From: an uncultured bacterium
Lineage (GTDB): Bacteria; Babelota; Babeliae; Babelales; Babelaceae
Direction: 5' to 3'
DNA: 64,000 nt
Assembly: GCA_963713855.1 (NCBI GenBank)
Contig: OY970209.1
Coordinates: forward strand, 448,001 to 512,000
Made by a program: the position numbers and the translations under genes. The notes beneath the pieces were generated by a model. The model saw nothing but the letters and a program-made list of their open reading frames with translations. It was not told where the DNA came from and did not search any database. This document shows positions 26,322 through 46,444 of this stretch, one piece after another (within the stretch, counting starts at the first letter, position 1; every line of letters starts with the position of its first letter).

Positions 26322-27464
26322 TTAAGAATTTAAATCTCTCGACGGGTTGTTCGCCTCTTTAAGTTGTGCCTTATCGGCATCGACCATGAGTTGGATGAGC
26401 TTTTCAAACGAGACTTTGGGCCTCCAGCGCAATTTTTTAAATGCTTTTGAAGGTTTTGCCTTGCGTGTGTAATCGGTTGGTCTAAAAAATGCTGGGTCTA
26501 TCTTTATAAGTGTTGTGCCGGTTGCGGGATCTATGCCTATTTCATCTACTCCTTTATTTTTCCAAAGCACATTAATGCCGATGTGTTTGAATGCTTTCTC
26601 GATAAATTCGCGCACCGTATGCATTTTTCCAGTAGCTATTATGTAGTCATCGGCTTCTGGTTGTTGAAGACATCGCCACATTGCTTCAACGTAATCTTCT
26701 ACATACCCCCAATCGCGAGCGGCATCAAGGTTTCCGACGGAGAGTATCTCTTTTGCGCCAAGTGCTTTTTTAGCCACGGCTTTGCTAATTTTTCGAGTTA
26801 TAAAATGTTCTTCGCGAAGCGGTGATTCGTGGTTAAAGAGAATCGCATTACAAGCATAGAGCTTATAGGATTTTCTATACAGTTCTATCATCTGATGGGC
26901 GGAGAGTTTTGATATACCGTAAGGGGAGGTTGGTCCATATGCCGACTGTTCATGTTTACTGGTTTTGTAAGGCTTTCCAAAAATCTCTCCCGTTGATGCC
27001 TGGCATATACGTATAGGTTTACCGCGCAGAGCTTCGAGGAGAACTACAACATTTAAGCTGTTTGCTTCAAACGTTTCTAAGGGTTTTTTAAAGGACACTG
27101 AAACACTGCTTTGCGCAGCAAGGTTGTATACCTCATCCGGTTTTATGTCTTCAATAAGGCTTTTGACGTACGTCGCATCATTTAAAGCCCCGTAGTGGAT
27201 AAAAAGACGCTTTTTTGACTCAGGATGTGTCTTGTAAATGGTATCGATTGCAGCTTTTTGCGAAGAGGGTCGTACGCTTCCATGGACTTCATATCCCTTA
27301 TCCATGAGCATCTTAAGAAGATATGAGCCGTCTTGACCATTAGCTCCCAACACGAGAGCTTTTTTAAGCCGTGCTTGGATCGCTTTAGGTTCGTTAGCCC
27401 ATACCGTATTAAATAAAGCATACGTAGCGATGAGTATTAACGACGTCGGTACAGTCTTTGTCAA
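26322..27464 (-). CDS. gmd: GDP-mannose 4,6-dehydratase paralog with N-terminal signal-like extension
   Basis: GANGQDGSYL, YNLAAQSSV, QASTGE, SPYGISK, LFNHES, RDWG; TTG start inferred. Confidence 0.85.
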   Translation of the reverse strand: MTKTVPTSLILIATYALFNTVWANEPKAIQARLKKALVLGANGQDGSYLLKMLMDKGYEVHGSVRPSSQKAAIDTIYKTHPESKKRLFIHYGALNDATYVKSLIEDIKPDEVYNLAAQSSVSVSFKKPLETFEANSLNVVVLLEALRGKPIRICQASTGEIFGKPYKTSKHEQSAYGPTSPYGISKLSAHQMIELYRKSYKLYACNAILFNHESPLREEHFITRKISKAVAKKALGAKEILSVGNLDAARDWGYVEDYVEAMWRCLQQPEADDYIIATGKMHTVREFIEKAFKHIGINVLWKNKGVDEIGIDPATGTTLIKIDPAFFRPTDYTRKAKPSKAFKKLRWRPKVSFEKLIQLMVDADKAQLKEANNPSRDLNS

Positions 27465-27559
27465 GCTAAAGCCCTTCTCGTATGTATTGGCTTGTTTATT
27501 AGATAAGTTATAATGCATGCAAGTCCATAAAATCGGATGATCAAGCATGTACTAATGGT

Positions 27560-28858
27560 TCAATTGCCATTATGCTCCTTGCCGTTATTTACTACAAGAT
27601 CAGGGTAGAGTGAAATATAAAGGTTTAAAAGCCTTCTATCTGTTGTAGTCATTAAACTCTCTCCGATTGTGTTTGTTGCTCCCATTTCAATATGCGAAGG
27701 CCGAATAAGTGTGTAAAAGAGAGGCGCCAAAGACGAGCGTAAAAATTGACGTGCCCATGTTCTTCCATTCAATGCCTTATTTTTATAAAAACGATAATCC
27801 TTATACATCTCGCGTAGGGCTTTGGCTAAATCATCTACAGTGCAGGTATGAAAATGTCCGCACATTTCATTGAATTCCTTAAAACGCGCTTTTACAAGCT
27901 TGTTTGCAGGGACCTTCAGAACGCCTGGAGCTTGTGTAATGCTTTTATGGACCGTGTGGTCCGTGACAATGCACGGTATTCCCGCCGCAAGGGCTTCTCT
28001 AGGCGTTAATGAATAGCCTTCGCCGGCTGAAGGCCAAACATAGGCGTCAAGTGAAGCGATAAATTCGATGTAGTCATCCCGTTTTAAAGTCTCGGCGTTA
28101 ATATAAACGTTTTTCAGTTTCAATTGGTTAATAATTTTGGTAATTTTAGGCTTGTCGGCTCCCCAGCTGCCATGTATTTTGAGCATGACGTTAGGGTTGT
28201 TCTTAAACGCTTGAGCGAAAGCGTGTAAAAGTACCTCGTAATTTTTTCGTTCGCTAAAGCCTGCTGAAATGCCAAAAATAAACGGATTTTTTGGCATTTC
28301 TCTCGTTTGGCGAGCTAAAAGCTTTTCTAGATAAATGGGCAAAGGAATGCAGAAGATAGGCCTTGTTACCCCAGATTCTTGGTAAATACCTATAAGTGCA
28401 GGGTCAGGCACTACTATAGCATCAAACGATTCATTGATAGCTTGTACCCACATGCGTGGCAGCTTTGTGGCTTCAAACATTGAGTAGGCGATTTTTATGT
28501 GCGATGAAGGTGTTTTGCGGTAAAAGGGTCTATTTTTATAGCCGATCACATCAGTAAACAGCGAAACTGGTCCAAGGATTCGACTATCAAGAGATATTGA
28601 TGATAGTTTGAAGGGTATATCCTCTTTAAACATTCCTTGTACCGGGCTTGGAAGAGCAGTGCGCGATCGAACGACGTTAACGGAGAAACGATCTTTTAAG
28701 ATATCGGTAATAATGGTAGAAACAAGCGGCGCGGTAGTTTCAGTGCCAATAAGCCCTACCACATTTACGTCATGCGTAACGCGTTTTTTGCGGCGCTTGC
28801 TCCCTTCAAGATTTACCGTTGCTATAAGAAGAGCGATTAAGCAAAACAGATAGTTCAT
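27560..28858 (-). CDS. Glycosyltransferase GT4-like with signal peptide
   Basis: KIAYSMFE, FDAIVVP, SAGEGYSLTPREALAAGIP; leader followed by KRRKKR. Confidence 0.85.
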   Translation of the reverse strand: MNYLFCLIALLIATVNLEGSKRRKKRVTHDVNVVGLIGTETTAPLVSTIITDILKDRFSVNVVRSRTALPSPVQGMFKEDIPFKLSSISLDSRILGPVSLFTDVIGYKNRPFYRKTPSSHIKIAYSMFEATKLPRMWVQAINESFDAIVVPDPALIGIYQESGVTRPIFCIPLPIYLEKLLARQTREMPKNPFIFGISAGFSERKNYEVLLHAFAQAFKNNPNVMLKIHGSWGADKPKITKIINQLKLKNVYINAETLKRDDYIEFIASLDAYVWPSAGEGYSLTPREALAAGIPCIVTDHTVHKSITQAPGVLKVPANKLVKARFKEFNEMCGHFHTCTVDDLAKALREMYKDYRFYKNKALNGRTWARQFLRSSLAPLFYTLIRPSHIEMGATNTIGESLMTTTDRRLLNLYISLYPDLVVNNGKEHNGN

Positions 28859-28867
28859 AGTGTTCCC

Positions 28868-45163: not shown

Positions 45164-45347
45164 CAAAATCCTTGTTATTGAAAAGTTAACAACGATGATA
45201 TGGTATATACCTTACTAATTTAATTTTTTACATGTCAAGGTAAGCGTTATTCATGGGAAAGATTAAGATCTTTATAACAGTTTTAGTTATTGACAAAATA
45301 TTCCGCGCATTGGTATCTTTCAGAAAATTTCTTACACTAGGTGAAGT

Positions 45348-46160
45348 ATGAATAGAGAACTCTTTTTCGCACTGCTTATAAGTTTTAATGTTTCTTGCAG
45401 TGGTATATTTCAAGTAGATCCCAAGCTTGAAAATAAGCAATTCCTTAATACTTTTTTAGGAATTCGAGATTCGTGTACGTGGAAGCAGCACGAAAAATAC
45501 AGTGTGTTTACTCAATATGATAAACAATTTTATTTGTCTTATAAAGATGACTTTATTAAAAAGTATAAATCCTTCTACGCAGTTGCTAAAACTATTAAAC
45601 CCAATAAAATCATCGAGTTAGGCTCTTCAGCTGGTTCAGGTTCTGATGCTTATATGTCCGCCACCAACGCTCACTTTTTAGGAATAGATATATTTAGTAA
45701 ACGTAAATATGATGATGGTACTGAATGGGATTCTTACGATATAGCAGAGAAGCTTTTTAAAGAGCGAAACTTTAAGAATTGGCGCTTACTTAAAGTTAAT
45801 TTAAGAACCCTTAAAAAGTTGCCCGAAAAAGCCGATTTAGTTGTGGTTGATGCTGCTCATGATTTTAACAATGAATATTTAGATCTAAAATTAGCGCTGA
45901 CAGCAGATCCGCGCTACATTTTCGTTGATGATGTGGATGGCGAAGAATGTGGACAGGCCGTAAAGAAATTTATGGACGAAGACCTGAAAGGTAGAATCGA
46001 GTTTGCGATCAAAATTGACTATATAATAGGTGGCTTGGTTATTAAACTTAAAGAACAAAGGCCTAAAAGTGGCAAGAGTAAAGCTCATAAAATCTCAAAA
46101 AAATCTGAGCATAAAAAACGTAAAGCCGATGGAAAGCAGCACAAGAGTCAAAAAGCTTAG
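45348..46160 (+). CDS. Class I SAM-dependent methyltransferase (Methyltransf_24-like) with leader and basic tail
   Basis: IIELGSSAGSG, GID, DLVVVDAAH, IFVDD. Confidence 0.78.
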   Translation: MNRELFFALLISFNVSCSGIFQVDPKLENKQFLNTFLGIRDSCTWKQHEKYSVFTQYDKQFYLSYKDDFIKKYKSFYAVAKTIKPNKIIELGSSAGSGSDAYMSATNAHFLGIDIFSKRKYDDGTEWDSYDIAEKLFKERNFKNWRLLKVNLRTLKKLPEKADLVVVDAAHDFNNEYLDLKLALTADPRYIFVDDVDGEECGQAVKKFMDEDLKGRIEFAIKIDYIIGGLVIKLKEQRPKSGKSKAHKISKKSEHKKRKADGKQHKSQKA

Positions 46161-46174
46161 TACTAAGAATTTCC

Positions 46175-46444
46175 TTGATCCATGCTGATAACAAGGCAGC
46201 AGTTAATTGCTTTTTTATAAGAGATGATATCATAAAAAGGCACAAACTGTCTTTTAAAGATAGTGATAGACTAGAGGCCCTTTATAAACGTTCGGGATAT
46301 GCCGGCATGTATCAACTCGATAAAGTGAAATGGTGTATCTTTCTGCCAAAAATCTGCCTCCAAAAAAGAGCGATCCGACTAAGAAGGCTCAAAAAGTCGC
46401 CAAGAAAGAGACTAAAAACTGAGCTAGTAAAGGTTCGAAATTGA
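46175..46444 (+). pseudogene. Probable C-terminal remnant of an FkbM-like methyltransferase
   Basis: SLIHADNKAAVNCFFIRDD resembles the N-x-FF(V/I)R end of 39429..40337; no N-terminal domain. Confidence 0.45.

Follow-up and report, generated by a model that had tools for sequence, protein, structure and literature searches.

Signal-like leaders on the glycan-synthesis enzymes of a Babelaceae bacterium are consistent with an exported, host-fed pathway

Bacterial glycan synthesis keeps nucleotide sugars, S-adenosylmethionine (SAM), 3′-phosphoadenosine-5′-phosphosulfate (PAPS) and ATP in the cytoplasm, and the loci that make GDP-D-rhamnose or methylated rhamnans export the glycan by Wzx/Wzy or ABC systems. 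Single glycosyltransferase (GT) effectors of intracellular or enteric pathogens are secreted and use host nucleotide sugar, while the glycosylation by a parasite of its own surface in the host cytoplasm is an idea that belongs to giant viruses. The nearest described system is the synthesis of glycogen by Chlamydia trachomatis in the inclusion lumen, for which the available text of the source describes enzymes that have no signal peptide and are type III secreted (Gehre et al. 2016, PMC4829429). Here, we analysed a window of 64,000 nucleotides (C1:448001-512000) from the 1.52 Mb single-contig genome (G000, 91% complete by markers) of an uncultured Babelaceae bacterium. A prediction made earlier from the sequence alone (the original prediction) had described in this window a set of GTs, GDP-mannose 4,6-dehydratases (Gmd), methyltransferases and a sulfotransferase that begin with hydrophobic leaders. 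This was borne out: in 12/12 of these window enzymes an intact catalytic domain is preceded by an N-terminal extension that contains a hydrophobic run free of charged residues, whereas the enzymes of the Wzx/Wzy or ABC surface loci are leaderless and cytoplasmic and are accompanied by flippase or ABC genes. We favour, with moderate confidence, a Sec-exported, host-fed glycan pathway at the cell envelope that would build the bacterium's own coat on its surface proteins.

The leaders were evaluated with a home-made signal-peptide rule, which classified 11/12 window enzymes as signal-like (an n-h-c leader with small residues at −3/−1). The only miss was the second Gmd paralogue (26322; enzymes are named here by their first coordinate, Table 1), whose score of 3.9 (cut-off 4.0) was computed from a start that is probably wrong. 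Hydrophobic runs had a median of 15 for the window enzymes, against 16 for envelope proteins and 15–16 for the families of propeller and ankyrin proteins; small residues occupy −3/−1, and the window leaders are similar to the ones on BamA, OmpH and binding proteins of the same genome. As the original prediction had stated, the leader of 41681 is among the weakest, and its start is uncertain; the GT2 at 22518 is leaderless, and probably belongs to an ordinary cytoplasmic route. Leaders as chance upstream extensions were rejected, since a hydrophobic in-frame extension was found by chance in about 5% of cases (14/299 leaderless genes and 192/4173 intergenic ATGs). True starts downstream of the leaders had been named as a point to check; in seven genes (27560, 30099, 31526, 38233, 39429, 44420 and 45348), no in-frame start is present between the leader and the catalytic domain. 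Firmer evidence than the rule comes from Gmd, whose leader is an add-on that lies ahead of the position at which ordinary homologues start: at least 18 residues lie before the GQDG motif in only 23/120 best Gmd matches. The orthologue of 26322 in a genome of the same genus (G153) is also leadered, and in several relatives the ancestral Met is kept behind the leader, with a weaker Shine–Dalgarno (SD) sequence.

The same kind of leader is present on related enzymes elsewhere in the genome. Nine further leader-bearing genes just upstream of the window (C1:435850-446427) encode a GT90, two methyltransferases, a sixth GT4 paralogue, two GT2, a TylF, a dNDP-glucose 4,6-dehydratase and an NRS/ER, the plant/virus-type rhamnose epimerase-reductase, which showed full-length similarity to PDB 4qqr (E 1e-107) and 7jid (E 1e-63). 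Together with scattered leader-bearing GT32, GT25-like, GT90, FkbM and sulfotransferase genes, they extend the toolkit list to 37 members, 34 of them accepted by the rule; this list derives from Pfam searches of 287/453 leader-bearing proteins, with one or none taken per large family. The sole phosphomannomutase (PMM), ManC and NAD kinase (NADK) of the genome are all leadered. NDK, G6PD and SOD are each represented by one leadered and one leaderless copy, which points to two compartments, and no leader is present on GalU, GlmU, GalE or three other GT4s. Leaders were also observed on AhpC, a branched-chain aminotransferase and two Ppx/GppA proteins. Within the 91% of the genome that is present, no match was obtained for MetK, APS kinase, DegT, LpxC or DsbB, and tblastn with the Fcl of one relative gave none. 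Genes for Sec, signal peptidase I and type II secretion (two secretins, two GspF, pseudopilins and a prepilin peptidase) are present, as are nucleotide translocase matches and large ankyrin and beta-propeller families. A search for Wzx/Wzy and ABC exporters had been suggested as a check. No flippase or ABC exporter gene was found in the toolkit clusters examined in this genome, and the first 330 aa of 104 membrane proteins gave no match to Wzx, Wzy or WaaL at E 1e-8 or better. The genome does have WecA-like and ABC-2 genes, but they are unlinked to the clusters.

The genome has leadered methyl- and sulfotransferases but no MetK or APS-kinase match. Two predictions, that the PAPS synthases and the SAM synthetases of relatives would bear leaders, were borne out. 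Full-length APS kinase was detected in 4/101 genomes, always as a Sat-ApsK fusion (PAPS synthase) with a leader; 36 weak genome matches were short, of the P-loop type, and were dropped. The sulfotransferase occurs in 12/101 genomes, including all four with APS kinase, and in three of these relatives the homologues of 44420 adjoin the PAPS synthase gene. The SAM synthetase MetK was found in 6/101 genomes, with one match each, all leadered (6/6) and one confirmed with TIGR01034. NRS/ER is leadered in 17/18 relatives' loci, the 18th being truncated. As these relatives are kin, the counts for PAPS synthase, MetK and NRS/ER are non-independent trials. Leaders on NDK are sporadic (3/26 parsed loci), and NAD kinase was rejected as a general feature because only 1/61 genomes has one. 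Gmd itself was found in 113/201 genomes of the phylum sample, with a leader at 16/29 best non-self loci. It lies near a multi-transmembrane (TM) gene in 1/16 genomes when leadered and in 12/27 when leaderless, and leaderless copies are often next to a leaderless ManC; the operon-scan script behind these counts, and behind the Gmd/Fcl and Gmd/ManC counts given below, under-calls leaders with a weak SD. A FastTree tree of 110 Gmd sequences, including a subset of the leaderless database matches, rejected a single origin of the leadered form, with at least three separate gains besides one large group that mixes Dependentiae and chlamydiae; deep supports, on which donor and direction would depend, are low. 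In one relative (L027), leader, GT2 and Gmd form a single protein, and at L225 (G053), one protein combines a leader, a nucleotidyltransferase-like N-terminus and a phosphoglucomutase domain.

Among 120 database homologues of the GT4 family, 109 carry leaders, and in 94/109 of these the hydrophobic run is shorter than 19 residues. The family occupies 65 loci among GTDB genomes, with labels that include 31 chlamydiae, 4 Dependentiae/Babeliales/TM6 and 7 loci with other phylum labels, and its genes sit there with leadered Gmd, sulfotransferase, GT90 and GT32 genes. Environmental chlamydiae share the family. The original prediction had called for a comparison with giant-virus and chlamydial homologues. 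No relative was found in a scan of viral contigs, and since structural matches are also distant, a viral origin or viral relatives of the family were rejected. Runs of at least 19 residues, long enough for an anchor, were observed in 21/46 chlamydial GT4 homologues, compared with 9/69 and 7/66 in background families. Lipoboxes were found in a cyclopropane fatty acid (CFA) synthase, one relative's NDK and one chlamydial GT32; the CFA synthase is that of this genome (C1:826054), with a lipoprotein-type leader (VVGC).

Taken on sequence grounds, export of the toolkit enzymes beyond the inner membrane is highly probable. Not only the transferases but also the enzymes that make their donors (PMM, ManC, the two Gmd, dNDP-glucose 4,6-dehydratase and NRS/ER) bear leaders; these proteins would be exported by Sec, cleaved by signal peptidase I and would act beyond the inner membrane, with the periplasm or the cell surface as the most likely site. 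Host sugar phosphates, NTPs, UDP-glucose, SAM, PAPS and NAD(P) would cross an outer membrane free of lipopolysaccharide (LPS) into this compartment, where exported NDK, NADK and G6PD would top up GTP and NADPH. Because no Fcl was found, the two Gmd paralogues would most simply give GDP-D-rhamnose; GDP-fucose and perosamine were rejected as products here because, in a genome 91% complete by markers, tblastn with one relative's Fcl gave no match and no DegT (perosamine synthase) match was obtained. The upstream pair of dNDP-glucose 4,6-dehydratase and NRS/ER would give NDP-L-rhamnose, and since these rhamnose donors are accompanied by methyl- and sulfotransferases, the predicted product is a methylated, sulfated, rhamnose-rich glycan. 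The likely gain for an ATP-importing parasite would be to spend host ATP and donors directly, without their carriage across the inner membrane. The destination of the leader proteins looks non-oxidising, because no DsbB scored over the cut-off in 41 genomes, VKOR was not found, and a bias for an even number of Cys is absent in leader proteins (151/304). Two thioredoxin reductases are TM-anchored (window 51880-53331 and C1:1283902), and a third is leaderless.

As to acceptors, the propeller proteins and a collagen-like protein are speculative candidates. The propeller family comprises 67 proteins of at least 200 aa, 47 of them with a C-terminal TM helix, and their Ser+Thr content is 24%, against 12% in other proteins; the collagen-like protein is flanked by two leadered GTs. 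In 18811-22113 and 46 paralogues, a conserved tail comes after the TM helix (YKY... and next a VNF motif) and may represent a sorting signal. The exported set has a cofactor supply of its own (PMM, ManC, NADK, the second copies of NDK and G6PD, and the TM-anchored thioredoxin reductases), and it is this supply, together with the anchor-length chlamydial leaders, the lipoboxes and the candidate acceptors, that leads us to prefer the envelope over the host cytosol.

Several observations weigh against this envelope pathway. The signal-peptide rule is crude, as it gave false positives in 8/45 cytoplasmic proteins, mostly with the first beta-strands of Rossmann-type folds, and it is passed by 563/1172 proteins of the genome (48%), so a leader alone is ordinary here and the unusual part is the class of enzyme that bears it. 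This high fraction, several independent gains on the Gmd tree, the internal Met retained in some relatives and the sporadic NDK leaders would all fit near-neutral add-ons, with the real work done by a cytoplasmic form that arises from internal starts or inefficient export. We regard this as very improbable, given the seven window genes that have no internal start before the domain, the low chance rate, and the contrast between near-fixed leaders in GT4, NRS/ER, MetK and PAPS synthase and their absence from housekeeping genes and from GalU, GlmU and GalE. A different difficulty is that, in 27560 and 31526, zero basic residues precede the hydrophobic run and the net charge just after it is +5, which favours a cytoplasm-facing anchor for these two proteins; the charge bias around the chlamydial anchors is weak (mean +1). 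With five EamA carriers, ABC-2 permeases and a WecA-like protein also encoded in the genome, donors could be imported and the glycan could be assembled on a lipid carrier in the cytoplasm. The genome's sole undecaprenyl-diphosphate synthase (UppS, C1:781248) has a hydrophobic N-terminal segment before an internal Met, which may reflect an outward-facing enzyme that uses host isoprenoid precursors or a mis-called start. In relatives' manC-gmd-fcl operons, leader status is discordant for Gmd/Fcl in 6/23 and for Gmd/ManC in 6/27. Such mixed operons would require no crossing of compartments if, as the original prediction had allowed, the leaders were uncleaved anchors of a cytoplasm-facing complex, with SAM and PAPS made available by import and the glycan sent out by ABC-2 after WecA-type initiation. 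This explanation, which the post-leader charge of 27560 and 31526, the WecA-like, ABC-2 and EamA proteins and the hydrophobic UppS segment support, is weakened by the cleavage-type ends of the leaders, their N-terminal basic residues and their likeness to those of BamA, OmpH and binding proteins, and by hydrophobic runs most of which lack the length of a helix. The G153 orthologue of 27560 has the leader but not the basic patch; the duplicated NDK, G6PD and SOD speak for two compartments; anchors have no apparent need on MetK (6/6) or PAPS synthase (4/4); and the toolkit clusters examined in this genome contain no flippase or ABC exporter gene. We therefore consider it unlikely.

The remaining explanation shares export with the envelope pathway and differs in destination: after Sec export, type II secretion would carry the enzymes to the host cytosol or a vacuole lumen, where host targets would be glycosylated or the bacteria surrounded by a matrix. 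To our knowledge, no sequence signal defines type II substrates. The machinery is encoded in the genome, the leaders are of the type found in the ankyrin family (57/66 signal-like), every donor is native to the host cytosol, and mixed leadered/leaderless operons are easier to understand if the host fills the missing steps. The ankyrin-GT2 fusion fits host targeting, as do the lysine-rich tails, which are present in 5/11 signal-like window proteins and in 27/459 genome-wide. These K/R-rich tails end five of the last six enzymes (39429-46160), with a net charge of +7 to +10 in 20 residues; tails of +8 or more are rare in homologues (4/120). Precedents, as far as the available text of each source describes them, are the C. 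trachomatis glycogen enzymes in the inclusion lumen (PMC4829429) and Sec/type II substrates found in both lumen and cytosol (PMC6717882). On the other hand, exported PMM, ManC, NDK, NADK, G6PD, MetK and PAPS synthase would largely duplicate enzymes of the host cytosol, anchored and lipobox forms would stay tethered to the membrane, basic tails are present in only 20/120 GT4 homologues, and the gene sets resemble kits for surface polysaccharides, with many paralogous GTs plus methyl- and sulfotransferases. Delivery to the host is possible but, in our judgement, less likely than action at the envelope. The original prediction stands in part. Its proposal of exported enzymes fed by host donors gains support from the leadered methyl- and sulfotransferases of a genome that lacks a MetK or APS-kinase match, from the leadered PAPS and SAM synthases of relatives and from the type II genes, but a whole-pathway effector system in the host cell is not our preferred reading, and the cofactor supply, the anchor-length leaders and the lipoboxes fit the envelope at least as well.

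The features of the window are listed in Table 1. Pfam confirmed the family names assigned in the original prediction, the matches of 38233 and 45348 being weak, and every enzyme that was checked has its catalytic motifs. The proposed block, 26322..46444, holds the enzymes where they had been located, but it is interrupted by housekeeping genes, and the last enzyme gene ends at 46160; an 89-aa ORF that follows (46175-46444) lacks an SD and is unlikely to be a gene, and a tRNA-Met lies at ~46470-46546 on the minus strand. The first Gmd paralogue (31526) gave a full-length match over the cut-off, with the T/E/Y/K catalytic residues present; its SD is strong, and no further start occurs ahead of the Rossmann motif. 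The second (26322) is 48% identical to it and keeps the same residues, but it scores 382.5 bits on TIGR01472 (NCBIfam gmd), under the cut-off of 415, and possibly acts as a reductase giving GDP-D-rhamnose; its ORF is open to 27548, although the likely start is the TTG at 27464. For the 30099 model, structural matches to viral proteins were only distant, with identities of at most 25% among the 50 matches listed, and the closest solved GT4 structure is known from weak sequence matches only. The GT-A-fold protein 38233 has a paralogue elsewhere in the genome, and a PDB sequence search with it gave no match. In a relative (G072), the orthologue of the leaderless GT2 22518 borders a run of ~25 leader-bearing genes.

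Table 1. Features of the window and the evidence for each assignment
Feature	Coordinates	Strand	Basis and remarks
Ser/Thr-rich beta-propeller protein, leader and C-terminal TM helix	18811..22113	+	Pfam
Leaderless GT2, internal control	22518..23453	-	Pfam, leader rule
Gmd paralogue 2, divergent GDP-mannose 4,6-dehydratase with leader	26322..27464	-	PF16363, E 3e-116
GT4 paralogue, leader then basic patch	27560..28858	-	Pfam
Leader, ankyrin repeats and GT2	28868..30055	-	Pfam; likely start ATG 30055, not 30136
GT4 paralogue with leader, predicted GT-B fold	30099..31367	-	Pfam; AlphaFold pLDDT 96
Gmd paralogue 1, GDP-mannose 4,6-dehydratase, leader of ~24 aa and linker	31526..32704	+	TIGR01472, 560.7 bits (cut-off 415)
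Housekeeping block outside the toolkit: glyA, efp, nusB, D-Ala-D-Ala dipeptidase, 2H phosphoesterase	33007..38094		glyA, efp, nusB read from sequence
GT-A-fold protein with leader, EDD motif	38233..39270	+	Weak Pfam GT2/MGAT2-like match, E 1e-3
FkbM-type methyltransferase, leader and lysine-rich tail	39429..40337	+	Pfam, catalytic motifs
GT4 paralogue, leader and lysine-rich tail	40387..41709	+	Pfam; likely start ATG 40387 (listed earlier from 40381)
GT4 paralogue, weak leader, uncertain start, lysine-rich tail	41681..43075	+	Pfam
GT4 paralogue, leader and basic tail	43093..44373	-	Pfam
PAPS-dependent sulfotransferase with leader	44420..45163	-	PF00685, PAPS-binding-type motifs; likely start ATG 45163
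Class I methyltransferase, leader and basic tail	45348..46160	+	Methyltransf_24-like, E 0.006
Thioredoxin reductase-thioredoxin fusion, N-terminal TM anchor	51880..53331	-	Leaderless thioredoxin reductase elsewhere in genome
GspF/PilC, first gene of a pseudopilin operon running past the window end	63606..63998	+	

Outside the window, a six-TM protein of 745 aa (C1:302024-305095) is GT-C-like by eye, without a Pfam match at 1e-8, and a GT14/Branch-family gene converges with it. Five tandem small paralogues, each with a leader and two TM segments, lie beside type II secretion genes (C1:264720-267614), and a group I intron match was observed within the 23S rRNA gene (C1 ~609146-609401; L004:9146-9401).

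A literature search, with most subscription papers and supplements outside its scope, returned no description of signal peptides on these enzymes. More tentatively than for the coat itself, we suggest that Dependentiae and environmental chlamydiae may maintain a reducing, host-supplied, cytosol-like workshop outside the inner membrane, in which leaders were repeatedly added to ATP-, GTP-, NADPH- and SAM-dependent enzymes and a Golgi-like kit of exported transferases builds the coat. If this is true, bacterial glycan assembly could proceed without cytoplasmic donors or the flipping of lipid carriers, energy parasites would outsource biosynthesis to host pools by a new route, one gene kit would be common to two unrelated intracellular phyla, and part of the very large signal-peptide fraction of Dependentiae would be explained.

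In that respect the genome resembles its described relatives, and Babeliales/Dependentiae are among the named homologues. Signal peptides are reported for 44% of the proteins of Chromulinavorax destructans in the available text (PMC6561590), compared with the 48% obtained here by the home-made rule, and the published Dependentiae share with this genome the type II genes, two secretins, nucleotide translocases and absence of LPS genes (PMC6561590, PMC4776705). What those papers stress instead, in their main texts, is ORFans, ankyrins, proteases and nucleases; the string 'glycosyl' is absent from both main texts, and the supplements, which lay outside our scope, could list such proteins. A preprint on giant proteins of Omnitrophota (10.64898/2026.06.07.730766) was rejected as a match because, in the part available, it deals with multi-domain giants and not with a toolkit.

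The clustering of Gmd with several GT4 and GT2 paralogues and O-methyltransferases is shared with the surface loci for GDP-D-rhamnose and methylated rhamnans, and a bifunctional GMD is known from chlorovirus PBCV-1, as far as the available text of the source goes for both (PMC9415975). The NRS/ER-type epimerase-reductase is likewise shared with the synthesis of nucleotide-rhamnose in plants and giant viruses. Viral enzymes, being produced in the host cytosol, do not have to be exported. For the GT4 family, the viral-contig scan gave no relative, and structural matches were only distant. Single GT effectors act as one enzyme per target, through type III or IV secretion and without donor synthesis, whereas a donor pathway is present here. 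The likeness to C. trachomatis glycogen, judged from the available part of that study, is that normally cytoplasmic carbohydrate enzymes, including phosphoglucomutase in that case, are sent outside and fed with host nucleotide sugar. There, a storage glucan is made by type III secreted enzymes; here, Sec-type leaders are found on other families, which extend to donor and cofactor synthesis (ManC, Gmd, NRS/ER and NADK) and in relatives to MetK and PAPS synthase, and the product is probably a decorated heteroglycan.

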